Assembly: GCA_038065125.1 (NCBI GenBank)
Contig: JBBTRP010000038.1
Coordinates: 1-49,323, forward strand
Direction of reading: 5' to 3'
DNA from: Patescibacteria group bacterium
Lineage (GTDB): Bacteria; Patescibacteriota; Patescibacteriia; JACQRZ01
DNA: 49,323 bases
The position numbers and the translations under genes are program-made. The notes beneath the pieces were generated by a model, which saw nothing but the letters and a program-made list of their open reading frames with translations, had not been told where the DNA came from and did not search any database. Shown here one piece after another: positions 1-38,900 of the stretch; position 1 is the first letter of the stretch, and each line of letters opens with the position of its first letter.

Positions 1-1833
1 ATCACGCTGGTCATCATGGATGACTGGAAGCTCTGGATCGGGGTGATGATTGGGCTTCTCTTTCTTTTGGGAATGCTCTTTCTCAAACTCCCAAAAAACC
101 AAAAAGTTCCCTGGCTGGTTGCCCCGTGCTTTATTGTCGTTCTCTCGCTCGCGCTCTCTATCATCCACTTGCCGCGCGTCCTCCCTCTGCCGCTTGCCGC
201 TCAGCCGACCTGGAAGACGAGCGTGAACCTTACCTGGGAAACACTGAAACGCGCACCACTCTTCGGTGCGGGTCCCGGCAACTTTCTGACCAGCTATACG
301 CAGTTTCGCCCGCAGGAAATCAACTACGAAAACTTCGCTCGTCTCTGGACAGTGCGCTTTGATCAATCCAGCGCGGCCGCTCTCACAAAAATTGCCGAAA
401 CGGGCCTGGTTGGATTTGTGGGTATGGCGGTTCTGTTCGGAATCGCAGGTTTTTCGACATTCCGGCTCCTCAAACGGAAGGAAGAAGTCGGCGAAGAATC
501 GCTTCCGCTTATTGGTGTTGCGGCAGCGCTCCTCTCGCTCGGATTTTTCTGCCTGACAAAACCGACAAACATGACGGTCGCACTCCTTTGGTGGGTGTTC
601 CTGGGAATACTCGCCTCGTTCACTACAAAGACAATTGTCACGGTTTCAGCGCAGAACAGTAACCGGTTTCTCATCCTCTCATCCGGCATTCTCTCCATCA
701 TCGTTGTTGCGGGACTGATCGGTGGCACATTCGCGTGGCAACGCTTCTCGGCAGACGTTGCCTACGGACAAGCTCTTGAAGACGATCGGCGCCTTTCCGG
801 CCTCATCTCCTCAAACCAACAGGTAGAACTTGCGGCAGTCGATGGACTCATAGAAAAACTCAACGCCGCACGAGTCAAAGACCCTCTCAACGACACGTAC
901 CTTCGTACGTTGAGTCAGGCGATTCTCTTTAAGATCCAGATGCTGGTGAATTCATCTGATCAGTCGCAGGTTCAAACGATTCAGTCGCTCACCTCGAGTG
1001 CAATCGACATCGCAAAGCAGGCGGTCGCCCTGAATGGACGCGACGTGCGAAATATTGAAAATCTTGCCGGAGCGTACCGCGCAATCACTCCATTTACCAA
1101 CGGCGCGGAGCTCTTTGCGGAAGAAAGTTTTATCAAAGCAAGCCAACTCGACCCGCAGAATCCTTCCTTGAAAGTCGACCTTGCAAAAATGTACCTTGAC
1201 GTTGCGGGAGTTGCCTTGCGTCGAGCGGAAGTTGAGAAGGGAGATGCGGAAAAGCAGGCAAAGAAAGCTGTGGCGATCCAAGCAATCGACAAAGCGGAGA
1301 AAGCGCTCTCCGAAGCGCTCACTCTCAAAACCGACTACGCACAGGCGCACTACTTCCTCGGGCTCATCAAGGGTCAGCAGAACAAAAAAGAAGAGTCTCT
1401 TGCAAGTCTTTCTCGGGCGCTTGAGATAAACGCTTCTCTCGCGTCGGTCCAAGCGGTGGACCAGCAGCTCTTTGGACTTATCGCTGCGGCGTATGTGAGT
1501 ATAAATGAAAAAGAACGCGCACTGGAAGCCGTACGGCTCTCCCTCAATCTCAATCCTGATGACACGCAGTCACTCTGGCTCTATGGAAACCTTCTTGCCG
1601 ACCTCGGGAAAAAAGAGTCTGCGCTGGAAGTGATGAACAAACTTCTCTCACTGCAGCCCCAGAGCACTCAGGTACAAGATCGCATCAAAGAAATCCGCGG
1701 AGAAAAGCCGACCACAAAGACTGGGAGCGAAAAACAAAAATCAGAGACAGAAAGCACGTCTACTCCATCAGTTGAATCATCGGAAGAAACTCAAAAAACC
1801 AACGAGTCCACAGCGACTCCGGCAGAGGAATAG
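1..1833 (+). CDS. O-antigen-ligase-like membrane protein tail fused to TPR repeats (5' partial; frame is open to the window edge)
   Basis: Track ORF 16..1833 has no in-frame stop back to nt 1. It has several hydrophobic helices and a GAGPGNF motif typical of Wzy_C-type proteins, then TPR-like repeats (AQAHYFLGLIKG, LEAVRLSLNLNPDD) and an S/T/E-rich tail. Confidence 0.6.
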   Translation: MTLVIMDDWKLWIGVMIGLLFLLGMLFLKLPKNQKVPWLVAPCFIVVLSLALSIIHLPRVLPLPLAAQPTWKTSVNLTWETLKRAPLFGAGPGNFLTSYTQFRPQEINYENFARLWTVRFDQSSAAALTKIAETGLVGFVGMAVLFGIAGFSTFRLLKRKEEVGEESLPLIGVAAALLSLGFFCLTKPTNMTVALLWWVFLGILASFTTKTIVTVSAQNSNRFLILSSGILSIIVVAGLIGGTFAWQRFSADVAYGQALEDDRRLSGLISSNQQVELAAVDGLIEKLNAARVKDPLNDTYLRTLSQAILFKIQMLVNSSDQSQVQTIQSLTSSAIDIAKQAVALNGRDVRNIENLAGAYRAITPFTNGAELFAEESFIKASQLDPQNPSLKVDLAKMYLDVAGVALRRAEVEKGDAEKQAKKAVAIQAIDKAEKALSEALTLKTDYAQAHYFLGLIKGQQNKKEESLASLSRALEINASLASVQAVDQQLFGLIAAAYVSINEKERALEAVRLSLNLNPDDTQSLWLYGNLLADLGKKESALEVMNKLLSLQPQSTQVQDRIKEIRGEKPTTKTGSEKQKSETESTSTPSVESSEETQKTNESTATPAEE

Positions 1834-1851
1834 AAATACACTCGTTTCATA

Positions 1852-1887
1852 ATGAAAAAATCCATGATCGTTCATGGATTTTTTCAT
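1852..1887. terminator. Bidirectional stem-loop between the TPR gene and the tRNA-Trp trailer
   Basis: ATGAAAAAATCCATGA tcgt TCATGGATTTTTTCAT is a perfect 16-bp stem with A/T runs on both sides. Confidence 0.6.
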
Positions 1888-2095
1888 TCGGGGGGTAGAG
1901 GAATTCCGCTCTCCCGACGTCCACTGGACGTCAGTCGTTTGTACTGGGTGTACTCGGAGTGCCGCCGGCACTCCTCGCTCGCTCCTTGGATGCCTGTGGT
2001 CTTCGTCCTCGGCATCCGTTCGCTCACACCCGTTCGATTCCTCTCTCATTACATGAGAACAGAAAACCCTACTTCGTAGGGTCCTCTGTTCTCAT
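1884..2095 (-). repeat. tRNA-trailer structured element, copy A (behind tRNA-Trp)
   Basis: There is a 21-nt direct repeat of the tRNA 3' end (1884-1904 = 2092-2112). 2032-2044 is the exact reverse complement of the T-arm at 2105-2117. The core at 1946-1987 is nearly identical to 7238-7281 and 16358-16402. It also has a palindrome at 1916-1932 and a long hairpin at 2053-2095. Confidence 0.75.
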
Positions 2096-2096
2096 T

Positions 2097-2167
2097 CGGG
2101 GGGTAGAGGAATCGAACCTCTCCTAGCGGTTTTGGAGACCGCCGTTCTACCGATAAACTAACCCCCC
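2097..2167 (-). tRNA. trnW: tRNA-Trp (anticodon CCA), CCA end not encoded
   Basis: Hand-folded cloverleaf: acceptor GGGGGGT/ACCCCCC, anticodon stem GCGGT/ACCGC with loop CTCCAAA, T-arm AGAGG-TTCGATT-CCTCT, discriminator G. Confidence 0.9.
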
Positions 2168-2177
2168 AAGAAAAAAA

Positions 2178-2210
2178 GGTTATAGGTTATAGGTTATAGG
2201 TTATAGGTTA
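2178..2210. repeat. Tandem heptamer (GGTTATA) x4 plus a partial unit
   Basis: Direct reading. The last partial unit contains the folD stop codon. On the minus strand it reads (TATAACC)n just upstream of tRNA-Trp. Confidence 0.8.
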
Positions 2211-3047
2211 AGCAGTCAACGAGGCTTTTGCAGCTCTCACGACGTTGTCCAAGAGGCATGCGACTGTCACGGGGCCGACGCCGCCGGGGACGGGGGTGAT
2301 CGCGCGAACTTTGTGCGCAACCGATTCGAAGTCTACATCGCCGACAATTCCGGCGTCTGTTTTGCTTACGCCGACGTCGATAACGATTGCGCCCTCACCG
2401 ACCATGTCTGTCGTAATCAAACGGGGTTTCCCGACGACAGAGATAATAATTTCCGCAGTGCGCAGATCATCTGATTTCAAATGCTCCGCTTCTTTGATCT
2501 GCGTCACGTTCGCTCCATTATTTACGCAGTGCCAAGCTATCTGCGAAGCAAACAGCCCGCCCCCGACGACCACTACAGCGCGTCCTTCAAGGGTCGTGCC
2601 CGCTGTCTCGATAAGGAGTTTCACCGACTCAGCAACTGGCGGGCGGACTTCACGACTTCCGTTTTTTAGACGCTCGAATGACAGCGGATTAAGGCAGTCA
2701 ACATCTTTGGCCGGGGCGATTCTTGCCCGCGCCGAATCCAGATCAAGGGTTCGAGGAATCGGAATCTGCACAATGATCCCGTGAATGGTTGGATCGGCAT
2801 TGAGTGCCTCAACGACTGACGAGAGCTCCTCATTTGTCGTATGTGTGTTGAGTCGTGAAACGTCGCACCTCATGCCCAACGCACGCGCCTCCCGCTCTTT
2901 GATGGATACATATAAAACCGATGCGGGATCCTCCCCGACCAGCACAATACCAAGACCCGGAGTCATTCCGCGCGTACGAAGGACCGAAACCTCATCTCGC
3001 AAACGCGCAATAATCCCATCTGCAATTTTTTTTCCATCAATAATCAT
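2208..3047 (-). CDS. folD: Bifunctional methylenetetrahydrofolate dehydrogenase/cyclohydrolase
   Basis: IIDGKKIA...GLGIVLVGEDPASVLYV...VVVVGGG matches the FolD family layout. The ATG at 3047 forms an ATGA overlap with the polA stop; the track start at 3068 is the alternative. Confidence 0.9.
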   Translation of the reverse strand: MIIDGKKIADGIIARLRDEVSVLRTRGMTPGLGIVLVGEDPASVLYVSIKEREARALGMRCDVSRLNTHTTNEELSSVVEALNADPTIHGIIVQIPIPRTLDLDSARARIAPAKDVDCLNPLSFERLKNGSREVRPPVAESVKLLIETAGTTLEGRAVVVVGGGLFASQIAWHCVNNGANVTQIKEAEHLKSDDLRTAEIIISVVGKPRLITTDMVGEGAIVIDVGVSKTDAGIVGDVDFESVAHKVRAITPVPGGVGPVTVACLLDNVVRAAKASLTA

Positions 3048-6828: not shown

Positions 6829-7161
6829 CTACGACCGATACTCATCTGGCAAGGCCTCGCTGCCAAACAGCTCAACAAACTGTTCTTTTATATCGTAATA
6901 GTGCCTTCGAGCCTGTGCTACCTCGTCTTTTGAAAGTGTTCTCTCTTCGTTTGCCATATCCGCTCGACGGTAGCCCATCAATTCAAGCATGCGATCTTTA
7001 TCGCTCGCTAAGAACTGCGGTTGTCCGCTCGCCTCTTCCTTAAACTCACTGCTTTCGACAACTCGATCGACCCTATCGTCAAAATGCTTTTGAAGTCTGT
7101 CCGGCGGAAGATTTGAGAGCTCGTCACGATAGTGATCTCTGGAGTCTGGGGTTCCTTTCAT
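6829..7161 (-). CDS. Hypothetical small acidic protein
   Basis: Track ORF 6829..7263 is trimmed to the first ATG (MKGTPDS) that does not overlap trailer element B. No recognisable family. Confidence 0.4.
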   Translation of the reverse strand: MKGTPDSRDHYRDELSNLPPDRLQKHFDDRVDRVVESSEFKEEASGQPQFLASDKDRMLELMGYRRADMANEERTLSKDEVAQARRHYYDIKEQFVELFGSEALPDEYRS

Positions 7162-7180
7162 ACGGTTGAGATTATTTTGG

Positions 7181-7421
7181 AGCGGGTAGCGGGAATTCCG
7201 TAGTCGCATCAGCCACTGGCTGATACTCCTGTGTCCTGGGTGTACTCGGAGCGCCACCGGCACTCCTCGCTCGCTCCTTTGACTCCTGCGGCATTCTGCC
7301 TCGGAGTCAGTTCGTCAGGCAGAGCCTGATCCGGCTTCGCCGGACTTACACCCGTCCGATTCCCGAATACTATCTTTTTGAACAAAACTACCCATCCTTT
7401 CGGATGGACACTTTTGTTCAA
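7181..7421 (-). repeat. tRNA-trailer structured element, copy B (behind tRNA-Gly)
   Basis: 16-nt direct repeat 7181-7196 = 7422-7437. 7354-7365 is the exact reverse complement of the T-arm at 7431-7442. It has the core at 7238-7281, a palindrome at 7208-7224 and a long hairpin at 7377-7421. Confidence 0.75.
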
Positions 7422-7493
7422 AGCGGGTAGCGGGAATCGGACCCGCCTCTGCTGCTTGGAAGGCAGCCATAATAACCACTATACGATACCCGC
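7422..7493 (-). tRNA. trnG: tRNA-Gly (UCC), CCA not encoded
   Basis: Acceptor GCGGGTA/TACCCGC, anticodon stem GCTGC/GCAGC with loop CTTCCAA, T-arm GCGGG-TCCGATT-CCCGC. Confidence 0.9.
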
Positions 7494-13667: not shown

Positions 13668-15264
13668 ACTTGCCACGAACAAAGGTATACCCCGCGTAGG
13701 ATACCTCTGGCTGGTCGTTAAAATCCTTCCAGTAGACGCGCTTACCGGACGGGAGATCGCGGGGAAGAAGATCGGCCCTTTCAATCTCTTCGTAGTCAAT
13801 GGTGTTTGTAACGATCATGAGTGACTGAACCGATTGAGGAACGTGGATCGTGTCCCCGTATTGGAATGCGAGCTTCGAGTGGTTCTGAATTCGAAAGTAT
13901 TTTTTTTCTTTCCAAAAAAGTTCCACAACATCAACGCCCGGCAGATAGTAGCTCATATGTCGCATATACTCTTTTGTATTCTTGATCCACGGGGCGCCGG
14001 GCTTTTCCCGATACCGGAATCCTCGTTCGGTAATGACTACGAGGGAGCGCGGATCGACACCTTGCGCGTGGCGCACCAGGCCACCAATATCTGAATCGCT
14101 CTTGGCAAGCTCTGTGCGCGTAAAAAATCCATACCACCAGCTAACGCGCTGAAACGAGCGCGTGAGAGTGGGGGAAGCGCCAAGGAAGAAAGCAGCATGG
14201 AAGATAATAAGCGCAACGAGAAGAACGTTTCGATGCGGAATATGAACGATCGCGATCCCGCCCAATAACACAAGGGCCCCGAGAATAGTCATCACATATC
14301 CTGCTTGGCCCAAATGAAGGAAGCCGTACACGAATAGAGAAGGAGCGATCCAGAGCGCAAGGATCCACAGATGATGCGAGGGAGTTGTACGCATGCGGGA
14401 GTGGAGGAGAAAAAGAGGTGCGAACGCGATGAAAATAAAAAATGATGATCCTGCGGCAATCAAAATCTTGGCGAGGAGTTTGAGCTGTGAGAGTGTCGCG
14501 CCCCACGGCGCTCCGGCAAAAATCGAGGTTGTCTGCGCAGACCGCAAAAGCAAGAGATCGGTGATGTGTGTATACGGCCCCCATCCGCCCGCCAATGACA
14601 AAAGCGGCACAAACCAGATTCCAAATGCACTCAGCCCCAGAAGCGCGCCAATCACACTGTCTTTTCGCGAGCAGAGTCGGCGGGTGATCGCCACACCGAT
14701 GGCAAAAATAAACAATGGTGCAAAGAGCACGAGGAGGCTCTGCCGAATCCCGCCCGAGAGAAAATACAAGAATACAAACGAGCCGAGATATTTTTTGTCT
14801 GATGTCTCGTAGAGACGCACGGCGCACAGTGCGAACGCGAGCGAGAAGAGGAGATCAAAAATATAGGCGGTCGCCACCTCGCCATAAAACCACACTGCGG
14901 GAAGAGAGAGGAGGGCGAGCGCGAACAAAAAGGAAAAAGCGGTGTCGCGAAAGAACGCTTTTGCAAGACGGAAAAACAAAACTCCGCACACCGCTGCTGC
15001 GAGGATACTTATCGCAACAAACCCGGCGTTGGCATCCGCACTCAGTGCCGCAGCGATCTTTCCCAGTGCAATATAGAGGATATATCCAGGCGGGTGGGGC
15101 TGGTGCGTGGCAAGGTTAAATTTCTCAAGCGCCAAGGCGAACTGCACCGAGTCCCAGGTATACAAGTAGTGCGTCTGGAAGGGGATCCGCGTCGCGAAGA
15201 CAAACAGAATCAGAAAAATCTCGTGCCAGTTCGCTCGTGCGCTGCGGAGTATATTTGAGATCAT
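13666..15264 (-). CDS. Polytopic GT-C type glycosyltransferase (GT39/ArnT/PMT_2-like)
   Basis: At least 10 hydrophobic helices. The N-terminal loop RIPFQTHYLYTWDSVQFALALE..HQPHPPGY is typical of the PMT_2/DUF2723 group. The ATG at 15264 makes an ATGA overlap with the upstream stop. Confidence 0.7.
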   Translation of the reverse strand: MISNILRSARANWHEIFLILFVFATRIPFQTHYLYTWDSVQFALALEKFNLATHQPHPPGYILYIALGKIAAALSADANAGFVAISILAAAVCGVLFFRLAKAFFRDTAFSFLFALALLSLPAVWFYGEVATAYIFDLLFSLAFALCAVRLYETSDKKYLGSFVFLYFLSGGIRQSLLVLFAPLFIFAIGVAITRRLCSRKDSVIGALLGLSAFGIWFVPLLSLAGGWGPYTHITDLLLLRSAQTTSIFAGAPWGATLSQLKLLAKILIAAGSSFFIFIAFAPLFLLHSRMRTTPSHHLWILALWIAPSLFVYGFLHLGQAGYVMTILGALVLLGGIAIVHIPHRNVLLVALIIFHAAFFLGASPTLTRSFQRVSWWYGFFTRTELAKSDSDIGGLVRHAQGVDPRSLVVITERGFRYREKPGAPWIKNTKEYMRHMSYYLPGVDVVELFWKEKKYFRIQNHSKLAFQYGDTIHVPQSVQSLMIVTNTIDYEEIERADLLPRDLPSGKRVYWKDFNDQPEVSYAGYTFVRGK

Positions 15265-16295
15265 GGGAACAGATACGCTCGCTTCTCGATTGCCGCGGTG
15301 CATACCGGCCGATCGCCCTTCTTCAGGCTGGGACATAGGGCGCGCGCTTCTTTGAGTGACCCGTGATGATCGATGAAAAGACCGATCAACCCATCAAGGC
15401 ACGGCTCCCTGCCTGCACTGGGGGCGTTTTTACAAACTGCTACGGCGCGAGTCGGCTCAGTGATAAAATGCTTTACCGCCTCCCCGCCAATACCGGCAAA
15501 ACACGGCTCCTGTACTCCCTTGTCAAGCGTCGCACACCAGCCAAGAGCCTTCTTATAGTTATTTCTTTCTAATGAGAGGGTATATTTCGCGGCGTACAAC
15601 ACGCACGCGCTTCGAAACTTCTCGTCAATTTCAAAACAGGGGTAGGCCGGCTCTCCAGGCCGCAGATACGCTGTTGGATGAACAAGTGTGTCGCTATTAA
15701 AATTCTCCATAAACGCGCCGTCAGCACAGGTGACCTGCTCAAACTCGCTGGGGTACTCGTTGCAGAGGCCAAGCGACTGAATCAGATTGTTTCCGGTGTA
15801 GTACATAGTGCCGTGCCCGACGCCATGGTAGCAGTTCCACTGGCCGAACGATCGCTCTTCGTACTTCTCGCATGCGGTGCGGATGCTTTCGATAATATCC
15901 GATGAGTTTTCAAACGACGCCTCGATCACTCCGTGAGTATACCCGGAAATGCAGAGCGGATCACGAAATGCGATTGCTGCAGAAAAGTCTTCATATTTTT
16001 TGAGTGCCTCGCGACCAAGAGCATGTACAAAACGATGGCACTCCGCCGCGACGTTCCGATCTTTCTTCATGAGCTTCGAAAGGCGGATGAGCGCTGTTCG
16101 CGGATTTTTTTTGTAAAGCAATGTGATCAGTTCTTTTTCTGTTTTCGCATACGCGGCCTCTGAGAGATGGGGAGTCTGATGGTTAGTCGCCACATCGCCA
16201 AATGCAGCCGGTACAACAGGTCCGCCCGCGCCGGTAATAAGGAGAAAAAAAATTAATCCAAATATTCTCTTTACTTGTCGCATAGAATGTCTCAT
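15261..16295 (-). CDS. Secreted Cys-rich hypothetical protein
   Basis: Signal-like RIFGLIFFLLITGAGG and many spaced Cys and His residues (CHRFVHALG, WNCYHGVGHG). Start is at 16295 or 16283; the track start at 16337 lies inside trailer element C. Confidence 0.55.
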   Translation of the reverse strand: MRHSMRQVKRIFGLIFFLLITGAGGPVVPAAFGDVATNHQTPHLSEAAYAKTEKELITLLYKKNPRTALIRLSKLMKKDRNVAAECHRFVHALGREALKKYEDFSAAIAFRDPLCISGYTHGVIEASFENSSDIIESIRTACEKYEERSFGQWNCYHGVGHGTMYYTGNNLIQSLGLCNEYPSEFEQVTCADGAFMENFNSDTLVHPTAYLRPGEPAYPCFEIDEKFRSACVLYAAKYTLSLERNNYKKALGWCATLDKGVQEPCFAGIGGEAVKHFITEPTRAVAVCKNAPSAGREPCLDGLIGLFIDHHGSLKEARALCPSLKKGDRPVCTAAIEKRAYLFP

Positions 16296-16299
16296 CTGG

Positions 16300-16510
16300 T
16301 CGGGCTGCTCCCGAATTCCGCTCTCAGGACCGTCCACTGGACGTCAGGCGTTTGCCCGGGGTGTACTCGGAAGTGCCACTGGCACTCCTCGCTCGCTCCT
16401 TTGGCTCCTACGGCTATTCGCCTCGTGCCAGGTCGCTCACACCCGTTCGATTCCCTTTCAAATCCATTAGGGACATGATACTCCAACTTCGTTGGAATCT
16501 CATGTCCCTA
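16300..16510 (-). repeat. tRNA-trailer structured element, copy C (behind tRNA-Pro)
   Basis: 10-nt direct repeat TCGGGCTGCT (16300-16309 = 16511-16520). 16445-16455 is the exact reverse complement of the T-arm at 16521-16531. It has the core at 16358-16402, a palindrome at 16331-16343 and a long hairpin at 16468-16510. Confidence 0.75.
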
Positions 16511-16581
16511 TCGGGCTGCTGGGAATCGAACCCAGTCTACTTGGTCCCAAACCAAGCGTACTACCGGTATACGACAGCCCG
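16511..16581 (-). tRNA. trnP: tRNA-Pro (UGG), CCA not encoded
   Basis: C1-G72 acceptor CGGGCTG/CAGCCCG, anticodon stem CTTGG/CCAAG with loop TTTGGGA, T-arm CTGGG-TTCGATT-CCCAG. Confidence 0.9.
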
Positions 16582-18233: not shown

Positions 18234-18357
18234 TAATCGTCATAGCGTGGCATGACGAGGTCGGTATCTCGGGATGGGACAATCAATTTTTCGCTTCGGC
18301 GAGTAGTCATGGTGGTAGTGTATCTTTCCTATCCTAAATGATTCACGCGTCTCGGAC

Positions 18358-18579
18358 AAGAAAAAACCTCCTTCGGGGGAGGTTTTTTCAATGCCGAGGG
18401 CGAGGATCGGTCTCGCCTCTCGTCGCCTCCCGGCTCCTCGGGCTGACCACCGCCTCGCGGTCCGGCTCGCCACTCTGCGTCGCCGGACATCGCTCCGGCG
18501 TTCGATCCCCGACGCGATCCAAACTGTTGGATCGCTCCCTGGCATAAGAAAAAACCTCCTTCGGGGGAGGTTTTTTCAA
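18358..18579 (-). repeat. tRNA-Phe trailer: 52-nt direct repeat (terminator hairpin plus tRNA 3' end) flanking a 136-nt GC-rich structured insert
   Basis: 18358-18409 and 18546-18597 are identical. The copy continues as a near-complete T-arm (GGCGAGGATCGGTCTCGCC). The insert contains GGATCGAAC, which is complementary to the host T-loop, plus several hairpins. Confidence 0.65.
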
Positions 18580-18889
18580 TGCCGAGGGCGAGGATCGAAC
18601 TCGCGACGCAAGGATTTTCCTTCTGCTTTCTTACGTTTCCGTAAGTGTTGGACTATATCATCACCCTTCTTTCTAGAGAAAGAAGGGGTCGAGCGCTTAT
18701 GCAGGAATATTGTTGAGGCTCACCTGCTAGTCTCTACGCCTTCCAGAAAAACAACGCTCTTTCTGGCTTGGCTCGGAGTTATCACAATTTGACTGGAGAC
18801 TTCTCCGAATTCACCCGATTTTTAATCACACTTTACAGTGTGATGGACCGAAAATTCAGTCCTTCGCTCTACCACTGAGCTACCTCGGC
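18580..18889 (-). tRNA. trnF: tRNA-Phe (GAA) interrupted by a group I intron after U33
   Basis: 5' exon 18889->18858 is GCCGAGGTAGCTCAGTGGTAGAGCGAAGGACT. 3' exon 18619->18580 is GAAAATCCTTGCGTCGCGAGTTCGATCCTCGCCCTCGGCA. Spliced, they give a canonical 72-nt cloverleaf. Confidence 0.85.
18620..18857 (-). ncRNA. Group I intron (IC3-like) in the tRNA-Phe anticodon loop
   Basis: P1 is formed by exon GGACU pairing with the intron guide GGUCC, with a U-G pair at the 5' splice site. The intron ends in G. P6 is CCAGAAA/UUUCUGG and P7 is GACUA/UAGUC. The strings CCGAGCCAAGCC and GGAAGGCGUAGAGACUAGC resemble cyanobacterial tRNA-Leu intron cores as I recall them. Confidence 0.8.
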
Positions 18890-18955
18890 AAAGTGAAAAA
18901 TAGTATACCTTATCGTTATAATCTTTCAAGTATAATAAATCGAACTCGTGGTATA

Positions 18956-19660
18956 ATGAACTTGTACTATAATGATATGAACGAGATAAAACACCAAGCA
19001 ATCCTATTGAGAAAAGAAGGGCTTTCATACAATACTATATCGAGGCGACTGCATGTTGCTAAAAGCACTCTTTCAGGATGGTTGAGCACGGTGCCTTTTT
19101 CGGAGAATATCAAAAGAGAGAATAACGAAAAAAACAAAAAAATACAAGCAAAAAATCTAATTGCATTTAACAAAAATCGATCGAGATTGATCAGGTTGGG
19201 ATGGATAAAAACTCAAAAAGAAAGCTCTCATGAAATCGGAGCTCTTACGGAAAGAGAGCTCTTTCTAATTGGAGCTTCGCTATATTGGGCGGAAGGATAC
19301 AAAAAATCAAACTGGAATATGGTCTTTTGTAACTCTGATCCGAAAATGATTAAACTCATGATGCATTATTTCCTGCACACATGTTCCGTGCCAAGAAAAA
19401 AAATAAAGATCCAAGTCCAACACTATTCCAATCAAGACGAACAGAGAGTCCTACAGTACTGGTCTCGTGTTTGCCGTCTTCCACTCAGCCAGTTCAATAA
19501 GCCAATTTGTATGGTCAGTAAAAGCAGCAAACTAAAACGCGGTTCGACGCTTCCTTTTGGAACGATTCGGATTCGAATTAACGACGTTACTCTTCTCAAT
19601 AGAATGAAGGGATGGATTGAAGGAATTGCCGATTCAAATAGATACAGACGACAGAAGTGA
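18956..19660 (+). CDS. HTH plus LAGLIDADG-like homing-endonuclease-type protein in an AT-rich island
   Basis: LSYNTISRRLHVAKSTLSGWL looks like an HTH. LIGASLYWAEGYK followed by VFCNSDPKMIKLMMHYF resembles single-motif LAGLIDADG_3 domains. The start was moved to the first ATG clear of the tRNA-Phe 5' exon. Confidence 0.5.
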   Translation: MNLYYNDMNEIKHQAILLRKEGLSYNTISRRLHVAKSTLSGWLSTVPFSENIKRENNEKNKKIQAKNLIAFNKNRSRLIRLGWIKTQKESSHEIGALTERELFLIGASLYWAEGYKKSNWNMVFCNSDPKMIKLMMHYFLHTCSVPRKKIKIQVQHYSNQDEQRVLQYWSRVCRLPLSQFNKPICMVSKSSKLKRGSTLPFGTIRIRINDVTLLNRMKGWIEGIADSNRYRRQK

Positions 19661-19697: not shown

Positions 19698-19774
19698 TGG
19701 TGGGCATGGGAGGACTCGAACCTCCGACCTCTTCATTATCAGTGAAGTGCTCTAACCAACTGAGCTACATGCCC
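19698..19774 (-). tRNA. trnI: tRNA-Ile (GAU) with encoded CCA
   Basis: GGGCATGTAGCTCAGTTGGTTAGAGC...CTGATAA...GGAGGTTCGAGTCCTCCCATGCCCACCA. Confidence 0.9.
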
Positions 19775-21431: not shown

Positions 21432-23024
21432 TCATAGAACCTGGTAAAGAGTTACCTCGCGGTTCTGATACACATTTTTAAGAAAGGAATAATTCTCGGG
21501 AGAAAAATCACCTGGAATTTTTTCATAAAAAGAATAGAATACGTAGCTGATTTTTTCTTTTTTGAGAAATTCGTGCATCGTGTTCTGGCTGTCACGCCCT
21601 TCAAAAATTGCGTACGCCTGCTTTCGCTTTCTGTCCAAATCAAGCGTCAAAAGCCAATGCCCGATAAATACTCTTCGATTAGAAAAGTATGGAATAACAT
21701 TTCCGTTAACCATTGATGAAAGAATGATGCTTTCATTTTTTGTATGAACCGACAGCCACCGCATCGCCTCGATATTTCCGTTTGGCAAAAAGGGGCTGCT
21801 AACGCGAGTCGCGTCGCTGTGATAGCGCACAAGGAATCTTTTCCATGATGCGACGGCGGGACCCGCGAAGATTCCAACAACCACCAGTGTGATCGCGCTG
21901 ACAAGAACCGTATCACGCATGAGAGATCCCGATCGATTTCTCCATCTCGTCAGTACCTCAAAAAACAGGCTCATCCCGTAGCTTGCGCCAATCGCGACCG
22001 GCAAGATAGTTGTCGCTTCAAAAAGACGTGTTTTCTGCGCGATCGGCAGACTATACATGAGGAGCATGCCGCACGCGAGCGTACACGCGGATGCTCGTCC
22101 ATCGTCATGCCGCTGGAGCGATCGAAATCCAATGATAAAAAAAATCCATAGTCCTCCAAAGCCCGTCAGAAGCTCGGGGATACTATATGCTCGTAGCACG
22201 CCGTGCTGAGAAATCGCCAGGGGATGATCGGAAAGCCCGATCAACGCCATGACGATAAAAGATGGCAGAGAGATCGCGAGGAAGAGAAACGCATGAAGCG
22301 CGATTTTTTTTCTCTCGCTCGGCAGAGACAGCATGCGCTCGACAACCAGTACGCCGGCAAGGGCAATGAGAAGAATTGAGTAATACGGCAACACGATATT
22401 TAGGAGCGCCACGCACATTCCAGCAACTGCCATGCGGAGACATCGCGTCTCTCTTCCGTACAAAAAACAAAGGGTTGCCGCGAACACGAAAAGGCTGTGC
22501 GCCAACATAAAGTGTGGGAAGTCGGCAAAACGAAGGAGCGATGTTGTGCCGGGCCAGACACGTACAGCGAATGGCACTATATACCCGATCCCTCCGGCAA
22601 AAAAAGTGAGCAGATATGCGTATCTGCGTACGCGCAACGAGCGAACGAGACTCCTAGTGCAATAAATCGAAGCGGCCATGAAGAGTAGTCCGAACGCATA
22701 CCGGGCGATGTGGAAGGTTTTTTCAATAGAGAGGCCGGCGATGCGCGAAAGATGCCCGAGCGAGAGATAGAATGGATGATAGAACAACGGCGAATGCTCT
22801 TCCGTGGTGAATGGGTCGACGGAGAGCCACTTCCCCTCAAAACCAGCGCGCATTTCCGTGAGGTAAAAGGAGAAATCCATCGAAATGGTCGGAAGACCAA
22901 CGTATGTCACATCCTCAACTGGATGCGTTGCTCGATAGAGATCTGGCGCGAGATTCCAGAGAAAAGCGATCAACGCCAAAACGATTACGAATTTTTTTTC
23001 TGAAATCTTTTGCATAGACTTCAA
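21432..23024 (-). CDS. Polytopic membrane protein (possible GT-C type glycosyltransferase)
   Basis: At least 12 hydrophobic helices followed by a soluble C-terminal domain. No confident family assignment. Confidence 0.6.
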   Translation of the reverse strand: MKSMQKISEKKFVIVLALIAFLWNLAPDLYRATHPVEDVTYVGLPTISMDFSFYLTEMRAGFEGKWLSVDPFTTEEHSPLFYHPFYLSLGHLSRIAGLSIEKTFHIARYAFGLLFMAASIYCTRSLVRSLRVRRYAYLLTFFAGGIGYIVPFAVRVWPGTTSLLRFADFPHFMLAHSLFVFAATLCFLYGRETRCLRMAVAGMCVALLNIVLPYYSILLIALAGVLVVERMLSLPSERKKIALHAFLFLAISLPSFIVMALIGLSDHPLAISQHGVLRAYSIPELLTGFGGLWIFFIIGFRSLQRHDDGRASACTLACGMLLMYSLPIAQKTRLFEATTILPVAIGASYGMSLFFEVLTRWRNRSGSLMRDTVLVSAITLVVVGIFAGPAVASWKRFLVRYHSDATRVSSPFLPNGNIEAMRWLSVHTKNESIILSSMVNGNVIPYFSNRRVFIGHWLLTLDLDRKRKQAYAIFEGRDSQNTMHEFLKKEKISYVFYSFYEKIPGDFSPENYSFLKNVYQNREVTLYQVL

Positions 23025-23237: not shown

Positions 23238-24745
<1,508 letters not shown>

Positions 24746-32449: not shown

Positions 32450-32558
32450 GACTCCTCCTTCCATACTCGTCATCGGGAAGCCATTACAGCCTACTGCCCG
32501 TCAAGTAAAATGAAAAGTCCAAAAGAAAAGATCCGTCGTTTGGACAGATCTTTTCTTT

Positions 32559-32630
32559 TGGACCTAGCGAGAATCGCCAGGCAGAGCCTGGTCCGCCTTT
32601 GGCGGAAACTCCTAATTACAAAACTTTCAA
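32559..32630 (-). repeat. Short tRNA-Ala trailer ending in a degenerate duplicate of the tRNA 3' end
   Basis: On the minus strand, CGATTCtcgcTAGGTCCA (32576->32559) compares with the tRNA's CGATTCccggTAGGTCCA. Two small hairpins lie between them, and a separate terminator hairpin (32517-32561) follows. Confidence 0.45.
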
Positions 32631-32701
32631 TGGACCTACCGGGAATCGAACCCGGACCTCAGCAATGCGAATGCTGCGTAATACCGTTTTACTATAGGCC
32701 C
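32631..32701 (-). tRNA. trnA: tRNA-Ala (CGC), CCA not encoded
   Basis: Acceptor stem with the G3-U70 identity pair, anticodon stem CAGCA/TGCTG with loop TTCGCAT, T-arm CCGGG-TTCGATT-CCCGG. Confidence 0.85.
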
Positions 32702-32801
32702 ACCTACAAACAAACGGCGGTGCACCCCAGTATACTAAAGGGGGGCTTCCCGCGCAACCTCCCTTGAAAGCAGCGACTGACCCTGCTAAGATTCGCCGCA
32801 T

Positions 32802-35790: not shown

Positions 35791-35928
35791 CTACACGGTC
35801 AATTTTTTTCGTCCTTTTTGGCGGCGCCGCTTCAGCACGTTCCTTCCATTCTTTGTGGTCATCCGTTTTCGGAAGCCGTGCTCTTTGGCGCGCTTTCTCT
35901 TTTTTGGCTGATAGGTTCGTTTTGGCAT
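35791..35928 (-). CDS. rpmH: 50S ribosomal protein L34 (absent from the ORF track because it is under 60 aa)
   Basis: My translation of the minus strand gives [45 protein letters not shown] followed by a stop. Confidence 0.9.
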
Positions 35929-36027
35929 AGAATAATCTTACCCATGATGGGCTTGATCATACCGTCTCGCGAGCGGTTCGTCAAGCGCCCCACCTCACCC
36001 CGGTACACTCCACGGGTTGTACACAGC

Positions 36028-36036
36028 TTATCCACA
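36028..36036 (+). promoter_or_regulatory. Perfect DnaA box TTATCCACA upstream of dnaA
   Basis: Exact consensus 9-mer in the rpmH-dnaA intergenic region. Confidence 0.6.
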
Positions 36037-36136
36037 CTTTGTCACCAGGTCACACCTTTGTAACTCAGATATGCCTGTGATACCATGACCGGATCCGTCA
36101 TTTCATTATTCGTACCCCTTATTTAAGAATACCGCT

Positions 36137-37519
36137 ATGAATACCGCGCAACTCTGGCAATCAGCGCTTGGAGAGTTGGAGATTTTACTCTCGCGTCCAA
36201 ACTTCTCCACCTGGTTTAAAGAGACGAGTATCCTATCTTACGAGAATGAGCGCGTGATTGTTGGGGTTCCGAACCTCTTTACAAAAACATGGCTGGAGAA
36301 GAAATATCACACGATGATTATCAAGGCGATCCGCAACGTGGCGTCGATCAGTATTAAAGATGTTGTCTATAAAGTAGAGGTGCTTGATGCCGCTCGAAAA
36401 AAGGCGGTCCAGGCATTTCCGTCGACACAAGCAACATTTGTCGCGTCATACGGCGCGGACACTCCACGCCCAGGAATCGGGGAGTCTCCCCATCCATCCG
36501 GCCTCAACCCGAAATACACCTTTGAAAATTTTATTGTCGGTAAATACTGCGAACTTGCCAATGCCGCCTGCCTCGCGGTTGCCGCGCAACCGGGCGAGGT
36601 CTACAACCCGCTCTTTATTTACGGCGGCGTGGGCCTCGGGAAAACCCACCTCCTCCAGGCGGTCGGCCACGAGATTCTCAAAAAAGATCCGTCAAAGCGC
36701 ATTCTTTTTGTTACCTGCGAAAAATTCACGAACGATTTTATCCAGGCGGTTCGCTCCGGCCGCGGAAAGGAGCTCAAAGACACCTACCGGACCGTGGACG
36801 TCCTCATTATCGACGACATTCAATTCCTTTCCAGTAAGGAGGGGTCCCAGGAGGAATTTTTTCATACCTTCAATACTCTTCATCAAACCAACCGCCAACT
36901 CGTCATCGCGTCAGACCGCCCCCCAAAGGCAATCCCCGCAATCGAAAGCCGTCTTCTCTCCCGTCTGGAGTGGGGGATGATTGCCGATATTACCTCTCCC
37001 GACCTTGAAACACGTATCGCGATTCTTGAGACGAAATGCAAAGACAAAAACGTCGAGCTCTCCTCTGAAGTGATCAACTTTATCGCGACCATGGTACACT
37101 CTAACATCCGCGAGCTTGAGGGCGCGCTCAATCGGATTCTCGCGTTCATGCAGCTCAACGCGACGCCTCTGAGTTTTGAGAAAATAAAGCAAATTCTCTC
37201 TTCAATCACGACTAGCTACGCAAAAAAATCCATCACTCCTAAGCAGATAATCCTGATTGTGTCGGAGTTTTACAATATCGAAGTTCCTGATATTATCGGC
37301 GAGTGTCGCAAGAAGGAACTCGCGATGCCGCGGCAAATTATTATGTATCTGATGCGAGAGGAGATAAAATGCTCCTTTCCACTTATTGGGACTGAGCTCG
37401 GTGGACGCGATCACACCACCGCGATTCACGCATACAACAAAGTAAAGAGAGATGCCGAACAGAGCCCGAAGGTAAAACAGGATCTCGACCTTATCCGGCA
37501 GCGTATTTACAACATTTAA
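36137..37519 (+). CDS. dnaA: Chromosomal replication initiator protein DnaA
   Basis: LFIYGGVGLGKTHLL (Walker A), LIIDDIQFL (Walker B), a C-terminal DNA-binding helix region, and gene order with dnaN. Confidence 0.97.
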   Translation: MNTAQLWQSALGELEILLSRPNFSTWFKETSILSYENERVIVGVPNLFTKTWLEKKYHTMIIKAIRNVASISIKDVVYKVEVLDAARKKAVQAFPSTQATFVASYGADTPRPGIGESPHPSGLNPKYTFENFIVGKYCELANAACLAVAAQPGEVYNPLFIYGGVGLGKTHLLQAVGHEILKKDPSKRILFVTCEKFTNDFIQAVRSGRGKELKDTYRTVDVLIIDDIQFLSSKEGSQEEFFHTFNTLHQTNRQLVIASDRPPKAIPAIESRLLSRLEWGMIADITSPDLETRIAILETKCKDKNVELSSEVINFIATMVHSNIRELEGALNRILAFMQLNATPLSFEKIKQILSSITTSYAKKSITPKQIILIVSEFYNIEVPDIIGECRKKELAMPRQIIMYLMREEIKCSFPLIGTELGGRDHTTAIHAYNKVKRDAEQSPKVKQDLDLIRQRIYNI

Positions 37520-37741
37520 CAGGGTGTGAATAGACCTGTGGGTGAGGTGAGGATGGTATGTTGAAAAGTCTAAAAAAAATTACTTACTCACATTCTCTTC
37601 AATAATTACCCACACATCTATTTTTTAAAAAATTCGATTTTTATGTGTAACAAAAAGAATAAAAAAATCTTTATCCACAATTCACACCCCCTATTACTAT
37701 TACTAATATATATTAATATCTTTAATTAAAAGATATACTGT
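37520..37741. other. Candidate oriC (DnaA-box cluster plus an AT-rich unwinding region) between dnaA and dnaN
   Basis: Perfect TTATCCACA at 37671-37679 and TTACCCACA at 37606-37614. Two 2-mismatch boxes lie on the other strand at 37525-37533 and 37537-37545. A very AT-rich tract runs about 37690-37735. Confidence 0.6.
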
Positions 37742-38866
37742 GTGAAATTCTCCTGTCTTCAAGAAAATCTATACCGAGGACTTCAGATAGCCAGATCAAG
37801 TGTCGGGCGCGAACAAAGCCTTCCGATTCTTTCTCACATCCTTCTCACCACAGAAAAAGGAATCCTCTCCCTAACCGCGACGAATTTAGAAATTGCAGTC
37901 CACGCCACTGTGCGAGGAAAAGTTGAAACGGAAGGGAGTATCGCTCTTGATGCAAAAACACTGGTTGAGTTTGTAAGTCTTCTCCCAAAAGAGAAAGTTG
38001 ATCTCACTACATCATCTCAAGGAATTCTTTCAATTCAGTGCGGGGGATATTCAACAACACTTCACGGCCTTTCATCGGAAGATTTTCCACTTATCCCAAG
38101 CGTTGAAAAAGAGAATCCCATAACTTTTTCACTAAGCGATATTCGTGAAGGTCTTTCCACCACACTCTTTGCAGTGTCTCTCCAAGAATCTCGTCCGGAA
38201 CTTTCGGGAGTACTTTTTCATAGTGATCCGGTAAAAAAAACACTCACCATTGTCGGAACTGACGCGTATCGTCTTGCGGAAAAAACAATTCCTGCGGAGG
38301 GGGAGCTTTCACAAAACCACGACGTTATTATTCCACTTAAAACCCTCCAAGAGTTTCTTCGGATTACCCAATACGGAATGGGTGCGCGCGGAGAGTTGGT
38401 GATTACCGACCATCAACTCCTCTTTCTTTGTGATAGTGTTGAGTTGTACTCAAAGCGAATTCAGGGTACGTACCCTGATTATAAAAATATTATTCCCCCT
38501 TCTTTTTCCACTCATGTCCGCATTCCTCGACAAGAATTTATTCAAGCGATTAAAGCGTCAAGCATTTTTTCAAAGGCGGGGCTTCACGATGTTCAGTTGA
38601 CGGTGACCCCAAAGCAGGACGGCAAGGGACTTCTCTCACTCTATGCGGCAAACGCAAGTGTTGGGGAGAATACCACCACCCTCGACATTGAGATGAGTGG
38701 AGGAGAGAACACAGTGCTACTCAACTACAAGTATCTTCTTGACGGTCTTTCATTAATCACGTCACAGAACGTGACCCTCGATATTGTTGATAGTGTAAAC
38801 CCGTGTGTACTCAAACCGGAAGGTGGAGAGGGGTATCTCTACCTTGTTATGCCGATACGGCAGTAG
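37742..38866 (+). CDS. dnaN: DNA polymerase III beta sliding clamp
   Basis: GTG start. LPILSHILL...LTATNLEI...GTDAYRLAE...MPIR is the DnaN family layout. Confidence 0.95.
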   Translation: MKFSCLQENLYRGLQIARSSVGREQSLPILSHILLTTEKGILSLTATNLEIAVHATVRGKVETEGSIALDAKTLVEFVSLLPKEKVDLTTSSQGILSIQCGGYSTTLHGLSSEDFPLIPSVEKENPITFSLSDIREGLSTTLFAVSLQESRPELSGVLFHSDPVKKTLTIVGTDAYRLAEKTIPAEGELSQNHDVIIPLKTLQEFLRITQYGMGARGELVITDHQLLFLCDSVELYSKRIQGTYPDYKNIIPPSFSTHVRIPRQEFIQAIKASSIFSKAGLHDVQLTVTPKQDGKGLLSLYAANASVGENTTTLDIEMSGGENTVLLNYKYLLDGLSLITSQNVTLDIVDSVNPCVLKPEGGEGYLYLVMPIRQ

Positions 38867-38900
38867 GGGTTAAGAGCGGGTGAATACCGTGTGGTCGGGT

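Follow-up and report, generated by a model that had tools for sequence, protein, structure and literature searches.

Structured, gene-free modules at the T-loop of tRNA genes in a patescibacterial genome

The window (the whole stretch of DNA that was analyzed, 49,323 nt) carries on its minus strand a tRNA-Trp gene that is followed by a short noncoding module and then by a second copy of the tRNA 3' end. We refer to this arrangement as copy A; in its reading direction, it contains the following features.

2097-2167, minus strand: intact tRNA-Trp(CCA) gene, with ends at 2096/2097 and 2167/2168 (ARAGORN; Rfam tRNA model, 63.8 bits)
2092-2112, minus strand: upstream repeat copy, from T-loop A58 to discriminator G73 plus AATGA, identical to 1884-1904
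2053-2095, minus strand: hairpin H1, ATGAGAACAGAGGACCCTA-CGAAG-TAGGGTTTTCTGTTCTCAT, with a U-rich 3' arm; terminator-like and locus-specific
2032-2044, minus strand: anti-T segment AGAGGAATCGAAC, complement of tRNA residues 53 to 65 and exact reverse complement of 2105-2117 (13 nt)
1905-2031, minus strand: conserved type-1 core, delimited by alignments, RNAalifold, covarying pairs and covariance model R1
2026-2031 (GGGTGT) with 1946-1951 (ACACCC), minus strand: core helix P1
1988-2017, minus strand: core P2, a variable hairpin
1975-1987, minus strand: invariant junction of the core, AAGGAGCGAGCGA
1956-1974 and 1916-1932, minus strand: core P3 and P4, respectively
1905-1909, minus strand: 3' end of the core, GCGGA, fused at T-loop position 58 to the second tRNA 3' end
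1884-1904, minus strand: downstream repeat copy, the displaced original 3' end of tRNA-Trp with the start of the native trailer, AATGA
1849-1880, minus strand: native bidirectional terminator, shared with the convergent TPR gene (16-1833, plus strand) and recognized from sequence and hairpin alignments

All the parts that a sequence-only reading had picked out are present, namely, the tRNA, the hairpin running from 2095 to 2053, the GGATGCC/GGCATCC hairpin, the 13-nt inverted copy of the T arm, the 21-nt direct repeat, the palindrome at 1916-1932, the GGAATTCC junction and the downstream terminator. Residues 58 to 73 of tRNA-Trp belong to the upstream, insert-supplied copy of the repeat. The whole insert measures ∼190 nt and was taken by that reading as one structured module. 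The region is indeed structured (folding z = -8.3 for the full 291 nt of copy A), but the conserved module covers only ∼140 nt (1901-2041; 162.7 bits with R1), since the long hairpin differs from locus to locus and resembles a terminator. H1, which forms two G-U pairs on the minus strand in copy A, has unrelated sequences in copies A, B, C, L013 and L014 and, contrary to what had been supposed, does not belong to the family.

The same architecture was found at four other loci of the window. Copies B (tRNA-Gly) and C (tRNA-Pro) had been noticed together with copy A, and the tRNA-Phe and tRNA-Ala loci are additions to the earlier list.

7181-7493, minus strand: copy B, whole
7422-7493, minus strand: tRNA-Gly(TCC), with the unusual T-loop TCCGATT
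∼7378-7421, minus strand: hairpin H1 of copy B, called terminator-like
7193-7363, minus strand: core of copy B (R1, 147.5 bits); its anti-T, CGGGAATCGGAC, carries a G matching the T-loop change of tRNA-Gly
7312-7344, minus strand: M module of 33 nt, nested in copy B
7181-7196, minus strand: displaced 3' end of copy B, then CCA
16300-16581, minus strand: copy C, whole
16511-16581, minus strand: tRNA-Pro(TGG), with hairpin H1 at ∼16468-16510
16313-16454, minus strand: core of copy C (R1, 144 bits)
16300-16316, minus strand: displaced 3' end of copy C, degenerate (T-stem strand changed), then CCA
18351-18889, minus strand: type-2 locus at an apparent tRNA-Phe(GAA)
18629-18867, minus strand: group I intron splitting the apparent tRNA-Phe (Rfam Intron_gpI, 76.5 bits)
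18539-18604, minus strand: type-2 upstream repeat, terminator included
∼18417-18538, minus strand: GC-rich type-2 module with anti-T GGGGATCGAAC
18351-18416, minus strand: type-2 downstream repeat, 66 nt, 92% identical
32556-32702, minus strand: M-module locus, with tRNA-Ala(CGC) at 32630-32702
32574-32606, minus strand: two-hairpin M module
32556-32573, minus strand: degenerate downstream 3'-end copy CGATTCTCGCTAGGTCCA, then a terminator

The 42-nt segment at 1946-1987 recurs at 7238-7281 and 16358-16402, as the first inspection had indicated, and the window contains the 19-mer GGAGCGAGCGAGGAGTGCC 3 times (0.01 occurrences expected). With covariance model R1, which was built from five copies, the three window copies scored 144 to 163 bits, and the next-best match in the window scored 11 bits. 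The view of a single element family behind three tRNAs holds for these three type-1 copies, but at least three module types exist. The type-2 module reached only 6 bits with the type-1 model and is a separate type, which shares with type 1 no more than the architecture and a short motif, "anti-T + 5-6 nt + AGCGA." Two candidates connected with tRNA-Phe were discarded: a match to the tRNA-Phe trailer at 22712-22742 lies within a coding region and is due to chance, and an open reading frame next to tRNA-Phe, taken by eye for a LAGLIDADG homing endonuclease, yielded only a helix-turn-helix domain with Pfam.

We then looked into the corresponding loci of relatives. The order folD-tRNA-Trp-terminator-TPR is found without the module in the syntenic relatives L010, L011, L021 and L071, which was the comparison called for by the sequence-only reading, and relatives have one such terminator, at the position matching 1849-1880. 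The tRNA-Gly site is empty in L021 and L071, as is the tRNA-Cys site, which is also empty in the window; an empty tRNA-Leu site exists in syntenic relatives. The tRNA-Cys site is apparently filled in L020, where the contig begins inside the element and the tRNA itself is unseen. Since these sites are empty in relatives that keep the gene order, the module is, as judged from this comparison, an insertion.

The position of the encoded CCA tells the two tRNA ends apart. A CCA after the discriminator is confined to the uninterrupted genes (tRNA-Cys and tRNA-Ile) and to the downstream copies of Gly, Pro and Leu, and the trailer of copy A, AATGAAAAAATCC, is similar to those found natively at the empty sites of L021 (AATAAAAAAACC) and L010 (AATGGAATC). 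Because the encoded CCA (Gly, Pro and Leu) or the ancestral trailer (Trp) is kept downstream, the downstream copy is the original tRNA end, and the working upstream 3' end came with the insert; the integration footprint suspected at the outset thus stands. The downstream copies are decaying, with T-stem strand changes in Pro (ATTC-GGGAG-CAGCCCGA versus ATTC-CCAG-CAGCCCGA in copy C) and Ala. What was inserted comprises a tRNA 3' end (residues 58 to 73, without CCA), a terminator hairpin and a short linker, together with the T-arm complement and a ∼125-nt multihelix core ending in GCGGA; after insertion, the upstream tRNA is intact with the supplied 3' end, and the original end lies beyond the core.

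The direct repeat corresponds to the 3' part of the tRNA starting in the T-loop, as in the T-loop class of tyrosine-integrase elements. Its 5' edge is fixed in the T-loop at all loci, at position 58 (type 1) or 56 (type 2). The repeat was expected from the first inspection, but its length is not a constant of the family (21, 16, ∼16, 66, 66, 65 + 44 [109] and ∼10 nt).

The type-1 core opens with 11 to 13 nt complementary to the T arm of the host tRNA. This anti-T segment covers the insertion point, 57|58: its CGAAC pairs only with tRNA residues 53 to 57, and AGAGGAAT pairs with residues 58 to 65 of either repeat copy, forming helix P0. The "inverted T-arm copy" first recognized in copy A is therefore an exact complement, better described as the complement of the uninterrupted target over the insertion point. 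Being complementary to that target on both sides of the joining point, anti-T looks like a built-in guide. Its best match is in each case its own host tRNA (Trp, 13 nt; Gly, 12; Gly of L014, 12; Phe, 9; the universal baseline is 10, 9, 11 and 7, respectively), in agreement with the claim that the ends are tailored to the host. The tRNA-Gly T-loop of the window is derived (TTCGATT in relatives, TCCGATT here), and the element mirrors the change, from AATCGAAC to AATCGGAC; both the T-loop and the anti-T of copy B are the same in an independent assembly. The T arm of tRNA-Arg is exactly that of tRNA-Trp, yet the tRNA-Arg site is empty.

The core folds as a three-way junction plus a hairpin, closed by P0. 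In this fold, 96% of the cells are paired, compared with 33 to 48% in slid controls, and 13 pairs show compensatory changes, a number reached in 0 of 500 shuffles of an alignment that holds only four independent sequences. Wobble pairs favor the tRNA-sense strand (RNAalifold and pair counts). These results suggest that the core structure is under selection. Reading frames shift between the copies, and none is conserved.

In Rfam 15, only the tRNA scored in positions 1700-2300 at the gathering threshold; at a permissive setting (E ≤ 10), the remaining matches in this interval were trivial hairpins below threshold. Intron_gpI had no match there at E ≤ 10, and the same model detects the tRNA-Phe intron. 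By eye, no convincing match to the hammerhead, twister, group I or group II domain V motifs was apparent. The phage and plasmid collections contained no match to the module (blastn), and four scans of viral contigs returned either nothing or coding-sequence and chance matches, none of which was confirmed by the covariance model; no autonomous relative with the core appeared among the viral contigs. A scan of the genome collection with the pattern GGAGCGAGCGAGG..CCGAGTAC gave 8 matches, all of them chance occurrences in GC-rich unrelated genomes with no tRNA nearby; the pattern was too strict, because other lineages have CCGAAGTAC, which it misses. As the earlier reading anticipated for the core, the modules thus match no described RNA or transposon family among those searched. 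Pfam revealed no recombinase, integrase or reverse transcriptase in ∼63 kb of the organism (window plus flanks), where it assigned only housekeeping genes and proteins without a Pfam match.

Type-1 cores were found in at least three lineages and at at least five tRNA loci, which answers the earlier call for further copies. Full copies scored 144 to 165 bits with R1, the L020 fragment scored 51.5 bits, and the core copies are, as estimated by eye from the alignments, ∼85 to 90% identical. Wherever the 5' end is visible, type-1 copies have the same two boundaries, anti-T at the 5' side and GCGGA at the 3' side, across loci and lineages. Nearly alike cores lie behind different tRNAs in lineages whose FolD proteins are only ∼51% identical, which suggests mobility over evolutionary time. 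The same insertions occur in all sampled strains of the species, so there is no evidence of recent movement. The host is a small bacterium with a reduced genome, and most of the tRNA genes seen carry modules behind them (7 of 10 in the organism, with the three module types taken together).

We propose that copy A belongs to a family of gene-free miniature mobile modules that home to the tRNA T-loop and, being nonautonomous, are moved in trans; we give this reading a probability of about 0.5. The element would move as a unit of repeat plus core, probably through a circle or an equivalent intermediate, and would join the chromosome at the T-loop, which would fix the 5' edge of the repeat at 57|58 (55|56 for type 2); the 3' extent of the repeat would be set by the length of tRNA end and trailer that element and locus have in common. 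Anti-T could pair with the target strand, in the manner of intron guide sequences, or could fold back on its own repeat through P0 and imitate a double-stranded target, as the CTX phage site does. The conserved core would be a scaffold recognized by an enzyme supplied in trans.

Several known systems share parts of this picture. Miniature inverted-repeat elements (MITEs) and SINE-like elements are also small, noncoding, multicopy and presumably mobilized in trans, and a duplication of variable length with one fixed edge resembles target-primed insertion. However, the module has neither the terminal inverted repeats and fixed short target duplication of MITEs (its repeats span ∼10 to 66 nt or more) nor the poly(A) or internal promoter of SINE-like elements. 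The complementarity at its end is to the host T arm and is not a family-wide inverted repeat, and it differs from both groups in being strictly targeted to the T-loop with functional repair of the target. Integrative mobile elements that exploit host recombinases (IMEX), among them CTX phage, likewise lack a recombinase of their own. The fold-back of anti-T on the start of the repeat would recreate a target-like duplex with a mismatched fork on one side, like the folded single-stranded attachment site of CTX phage, an arrangement that suits single-strand exchange resolved by replication (PMC3442271). Unlike these elements, the module targets the tRNA T arm and not dif, and, in contrast to CTX phage, it is a 200-nt unit without replication or packaging genes.

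A bolder and more tentative version of our proposal, to which we would give a minority share of our confidence, is that the core is the scaffold of a new nucleic-acid-guided mobility system. A 125-nt RNA or single-stranded DNA would pair across the insertion point in the universally conserved T-loop and insert by its own chemistry or with an enzyme acting in trans, of a kind so far not connected with guides, bringing along a "prosthetic" tRNA 3' end. If so, bridge-RNA, omega-RNA and intron homing would have in the module a minimal counterpart that lacks protein, and the prosthetic end would keep an essential target functional. The bridge (seek) RNAs of IS110/IS1111 elements and the omega RNAs of TnpB/IscB also place a structured noncoding scaffold beside target-matching sequence, a likeness that raises the idea of a trans-acting RNA-guided enzyme. 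The module is nevertheless not an IS110-type bridge RNA element: no recombinase (DEDD) or nuclease gene adjoins it, and its fold, a three-way junction with a P0-closed hairpin, is not the two-loop target/donor architecture. Bridge and omega RNA systems leave no long repeats, and the guide-like segments of the module pair with each other.

Alternatively, the core may be so highly conserved because it serves the host. The core would then be a small RNA produced from the tRNA 3' trailer by read-through past the hairpin, acting by T-arm pairing or through an end that resembles a tRNA 3' half (P0 with a free acceptor strand), and the duplicated tRNA end would belong to the function of this RNA and would not be a scar of mobility. 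Conservation about equal to that of tRNA across the lineages with ∼51% FolD identity, the covarying helices with strand-specific G-U pairs, the compensatory change that ties the T-loop to anti-T in copy B, and the retention of modules at 7 of 10 tRNA genes in a small genome all speak for such an RNA. Yet we found no promoter-like site for the module, which has a terminator-like hairpin on one side and either another terminator or the start of a gene on the other, and close relatives do without it. In copy C and at tRNA-Ala, the downstream repeat, and therefore also P0, is degenerate although the core is intact. Furthermore, three unrelated or barely related module types have the same insertion architecture, which points to a shared insertion process rather than to one RNA function, and we regard a host RNA as unlikely.

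An origin as an intron-like mobile RNA appears to us distinctly improbable. The core would be, or would derive from, a small ribozyme-type intron whose guide spans the junction, and it would have entered either by reverse splicing at 57|58 followed by reverse transcription and recombination or by target-primed reverse transcription. In group I (P1/P10) and group II (EBS/IBS) introns, the guide is an unbroken complement of the ligated target on either side of the junction, and the module, inserted in the orientation and strand of its target, has such a segment; as with self-splicing introns, this segment complements the target over the junction, the insertion is in sense orientation, and the guide varies with the host. 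Target-primed reverse transcription would leave a repeat with one edge fixed and the other variable, several repeats stop at a terminator or shortly beyond it, as a primary transcript would, and a relative in the clade has a reverse transcriptase adjoining folD. However, none was found in the ∼63 kb of the organism. At 125 nt, the core is far below known self-splicing cores, it has no recognizable catalytic core (no P3-P9 by Rfam, and no group I or other ribozyme match at E ≤ 10), and the element ends in A where group I introns need a G. The upstream tRNA is already intact and needs no splicing, and the guide is parted from the 5' junction by the copy of the 3' "exon" and the terminator. The upstream copies lack CCA and were therefore not copied from mature tRNA.

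The textbook integrase signature at tRNA genes consists of a T-loop identity block, a regenerated tRNA and a displaced native end. All three are present at our loci, which could accordingly be deletion relics, in which a prophage or integrative element entered via a tyrosine integrase and lost its interior, the core being an attachment-site arm. Like tRNA-integrating islands, prophages and cis-mobilizable elements (CIMEs), the modules have a repeat that runs from the T-loop through the tRNA 3' end; as with integrase islands and prophages, the element gives the working 3' end, displaces the native one and faces empty sites in relatives; and CIMEs also occur without recombination genes, bounded by attachment sites. 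In the tyrosine-integrase T-loop class, the element contains the integrase gene, which the ∼190-nt insert does not. The module differs further from integrase islands and CIMEs in this small size (with a core of ∼125 nt), in a sharply bounded structured core repeated at different tRNAs, in helices that covary as a folded single strand and in carrying the complement of the target across the crossover. A CIME is defined by its derivation from an identifiable ICE or IME, and no parental element of the module was found in the viral, phage or plasmid collections, nor did any phage, plasmid or viral contig searched show likeness to it. The two identical core boundaries of type-1 copies would not result from independent deletions, and compensatory pair changes would be unneeded in protein-binding double-stranded arms. 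Deletion relics thus seem very unlikely.

Repeat misassembly can be dismissed as the source of the duplications: although low-coverage assemblies are noisy inside repeats (L083, L084 and L077), the same architecture is present in at least six independent assemblies, the same order and junctions are found in ERZ1286166, ERZ1292621, ERZ2470813, ERZ1300416 and GCA_964358935.1 (several samples and assemblers), and the other lineages, from unrelated metagenomes, show them too. Acceptor-strand differences in tRNA-Trp of L077 and L078 were set aside, since these ∼5× assemblies are visibly noisy in repeats.

As gene-free mobile modules, these inserts would be among the smallest site-specific mobile units described, combining an attachment function, a terminator, a spare tRNA end and a structured core. 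Their complement over the insertion site raises the question of whether tRNA genes can be targeted by a nucleic-acid guide as opposed to the protein-DNA contacts of an integrase. The inserts, found at roughly two of every three tRNA genes observed in the reduced genome, also reshape tRNA gene structure: the working Gly, Pro and Leu genes have lost their encoded CCA, and these tRNAs therefore depend on the CCA-adding enzyme.

Finally, spurious open reading frames run over the cores (e.g., 1777-2049 and the 5' extensions of 6829-7263 and 15261-16337); in annotation, these frames and the displaced tRNA 3' fragments should be recognized as such.

Read on the minus strand, copy A behind tRNA-Trp is composed of the following features.

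2097-2167, minus strand: tRNA-Trp(CCA), found by ARAGORN and Rfam
2095->2053, minus strand: long hairpin with a CGAAG loop, directly 3' of tRNA-Trp and followed by a short linker
2044->2032, minus strand: anti-T segment AGAGGAATCGAAC, exact reverse complement of tRNA-Trp positions 53-65
between the anti-T segment and the downstream repeat copy, minus strand: multi-helix segment, then GCGGA (order read in the sequence)
1904->1884 (= 2112->2092), minus strand: 21-nt exact copy of tRNA-Trp from the T-loop to the 3' end, plus AATGA (sequence identity)
3' of the downstream 21-nt copy, minus strand: canonical terminator (read in the sequence)

Segments homologous to the core of copy A were also found behind tRNA-Gly (7422-7493; copy B) and tRNA-Pro (16511-16581; copy C). 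The sequence-only reading had proposed a covariance model of the three copies; one that we built from five recovered all three window copies at 144-163 bits (163, 148, and 144 bits, against 11 bits for the next window match). These scores and a direct check of the layout in the sequence establish that the earlier description of copy A is correct at every coordinate. On its upstream side, tRNA-Trp abuts an 8-mer (AACCTATA) repeated ∼4 times in tandem (2178-2212, minus strand), kept in two other assemblies of the organism (L009 and L077) and slightly varied in the more distant relative L011, which may be a promoter-region element.

The alignment of the five cores (the three window copies plus two of a metagenome organism) delimited a conserved unit of ∼140 nt, from GGAATCGAAC to GCGGAATTC (type 1). 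Its predicted fold has a three-way junction closed by helix P1 (GGGTGT/ACACCC), a variable hairpin P2, a helix P3 that pairs GGAGTGCC with GGCACTCC, a further hairpin P4, and an outer helix P0 between the anti-T segment and the 8 nt with which the downstream tRNA-end copy begins; GAGCGAAC, AAGGAGCGAGCGA, and GAGU are invariant and single stranded. RNAalifold and explicit pair counting gave 96% of cells paired, and sliding the partners by one to three columns lowered this value to 33-48%. Thirteen pairs were changed on both sides, a number reached by none of 500 column shuffles. G-U pairs were frequent and A-C mismatches almost absent, so the folded strand is the tRNA-sense strand, as RNA or single-stranded DNA. 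The covariation thus supports, but does not prove, a real structure in what is a small sample of four independent sequences. The core listed in the sequence-only reading is therein borne out, and the hairpin directly 3' of the tRNA, which that reading counted as part of the element, falls outside the family: its sequences are unrelated among copies, the 5' arm being rich in A and the 3' arm in U, and the hairpin of copy B was called terminator-like. Comparison across copies revealed no conserved reading frame in the core. The longest ORFs at 1777-2049, 6829-7263, and 15261-16337 (minus strand) cross cores or displaced tRNA ends; the first is probably not a gene, and the true starts of the other two probably lie further downstream, at ∼7160 and ∼16296.

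We then looked into the corresponding loci of relatives, located via their FolD homologues. L010, L021, and L071 have the order polA-folD-tRNA-Trp-terminator-TPR gene without a module, which provides the empty tRNA-Trp sites that the earlier note had suggested seeking; the site is only probably empty in L011, because its contig ends within the downstream hairpin. Further empty sites were found at tRNA-Gly and tRNA-Cys in L021 and L071 and at tRNA-Leu in L071. The uninterrupted tRNA-Cys and tRNA-Ile genes of the window encode CCA; in tRNA-Gly, tRNA-Pro, and tRNA-Leu, CCA occurs only after the downstream copy, with TTG or TAG in its place after the working copy upstream. Likewise, the downstream tRNA-Trp trailer AATGAAAAAATCC resembles the native L021 trailer AATAAAAAAACC. 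CCA and the native trailer thus sit at the downstream copy, from which it follows that the insert supplied a replacement 3' end and terminator, displacing the native end. The displaced copies are free to decay: copy C has a changed T-stem strand, and that of tRNA-Ala differs at two stem positions.

The 5' edge of the repeat always lies in the T-loop (position 58 in type 1, position 56 in a second module type), and its length varies between loci, so that it is no fixed-length target duplication.

Repeat length and anti-T match to the host tRNA (baseline with other tRNAs in parentheses)
Trp: repeat 21 nt; match 13 nt (10)
Gly, window: repeat 16 nt; match 12 nt (9 or fewer)
Pro: repeat ∼16 nt, degenerate
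Phe, type 2: repeat 66 nt including terminator; match 9 nt (7 or fewer)
Gly, L014: repeat 66 nt including terminator and linker; match 12 nt (11)
L013: repeat 65 nt plus the first 44 nt of a second core
L020: repeat ∼10 nt

One fixed and one free edge would be left if a unit made of repeat and core, circular or transferred, joined at the T-loop, the extent of the repeat being whatever sequence the unit has in common with the locus; target-primed copying also fits this pattern. Unequal exchange between repeats can produce a tandem such as that in L013.

The anti-T segment of each copy matches its own host tRNA best. The window tRNA-Gly(TCC) has a derived T-loop, TCCGATT (TTCGATT in relatives), in which position 55, normally invariant, is C, as confirmed in independent assemblies. 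Its element mirrors the change, carrying AATCGGAC in place of AATCGAAC, also in an independent assembly. Within the anti-T segment, CGAAC pairs on the upstream side of the junction, with positions 53-57, and lacks a partner within the element, and AGAGGAAT pairs with either repeat copy at positions 58-65. Judged from these pairings, the complement appears to behave like a guide. By our reasoning, this layout would parallel that of intron guide sequences, which match an uninterrupted target to either side of the joining point and agree with it in strand and orientation; a folded single strand imitating its target would be expected to look similar.

Type-1 cores occur at Trp, Gly, and Pro in the window organism, behind tRNA-Gly after Nramp (L014) and an unidentified tRNA (L013) in the metagenome organism, and upstream of polA in a third lineage (L020). 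We infer the host tRNA of L020, since its contig begins inside the element; at the equivalent position, tRNA-Cys is uninterrupted in the window, L021, and L071. Judged by eye from alignments, the cores look ∼85 to 90% identical, and FolD identity between the lineages is ∼51%. The GC-rich type 2 lies behind tRNA-Leu and an intron-containing tRNA-Phe, with a longer AT-rich form (∼620 nt) behind tRNA-Ser(CGA), and has nothing in common with type 1 beyond the layout and the motif "anti-T, 5-6 nt, AGCGA." The M module consists of two hairpins in 33 nt; it is found behind tRNA-Ala, nested inside the tRNA-Gly core, and behind tRNA-Leu, where it is the second insertion. In all, 7 of the 10 tRNA genes seen in the organism carry modules, tRNA-Cys, tRNA-Ile, and tRNA-Arg being free. 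The single family initially proposed therefore stands in its recurrence behind three tRNAs and was too narrow in scope, given two more module types and other lineages.

18580-18889, minus strand: tRNA-Phe(GAA), identified by eye and missed by ARAGORN
18629-18867, minus strand: group I intron in the tRNA-Phe anticodon loop (Rfam, 76.5 bits)

tRNA-Leu(TAG), ∼7.5 kb before the window start (L009, 17968-18293; L077, 18754-19059), contains a type-2 module and then M, with a tRNA 3' end copy after each and CCA kept only in the last. tRNA-Ser(CGA) lies ∼2.1 to 2.8 kb past the window end (L073, 16240-16860); its noncoding insertion has an anti-T segment near the start, a long AT-rich interior, which may be a further nested element, a type-2-like 3' end, and the tRNA 3' end copy. 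Between tRNA-Ile and tRNA-Phe, an ORF of ∼234 to 255 aa (18893-19660, plus strand; N-terminal HTH_23) is called as just 92 aa in low-coverage strain assemblies; a LAGLIDADG homing endonuclease, suspected from an LYWAEGYK stretch, had no Pfam support.

Copy A is thus a real element that falls in no family tested, and the finding is of larger scope than the sequence-only reading gave it. For the mechanism, we infer a nonautonomous, tRNA-targeted integrative module mobilized in trans, at a probability of about 0.5. This reading fits best because of the T-loop insertion, the supplied 3' end and terminator, the displaced native end, the bounded structured core, the host-matched complement spanning the junction, and the spread across tRNAs and lineages. 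Integrase-borne islands at tRNA genes similarly repair their target on insertion but carry an integrase, which sets the module outside that class; the module's folded core and its built-in complement of the target are additions, neither described for such islands. Pfam scans of the window ORFs and extra flank revealed no integrase, transposase, or reverse transcriptase, the genes being those of replication, the cell envelope, and translation (including dnaA, dnaN, polA, ruvC, an SMC protein, a penicillin-binding protein, and yidC), with several proteins lacking a Pfam match. The core had no match in Rfam 15, in keeping with the first impression of no known RNA family. A small RNA of the host, made from the tRNA trailer, is unlikely; no promoter-like site was found preceding the core. 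We regard an intron-like or retro-copied RNA element as quite improbable, and deletion relics of larger elements as slightly more doubtful still; phage and plasmid collections and viral contigs gave no match to the module. An assembly artefact is excluded, as at least six assemblies contain the species and those covering a given locus agree on its architecture, with no presence/absence polymorphism seen among them.

Just upstream of folD, a more distant relative that keeps this gene order and lacks tRNA insertions carries bAvd and a reverse transcriptase, a diversity-generating-retroelement-like pair (L071, 8542-9924; L072, 700-2082). The 16S rRNA gene (23239-24745) lies ∼3.4 kb from tRNA-Ile (19701-19774), with three protein-coding ORFs between them. 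Since a 23S rRNA gene was not detected anywhere in the window, the rRNA genes are apparently not linked. The presence of dnaA and dnaN (35800-38900) places the replication origin region inside the window. All seven ARAGORN tRNA genes of the window are on one side of it and co-oriented with replication, which makes the folded tRNA-sense strand of the modules the template of the lagging strand.
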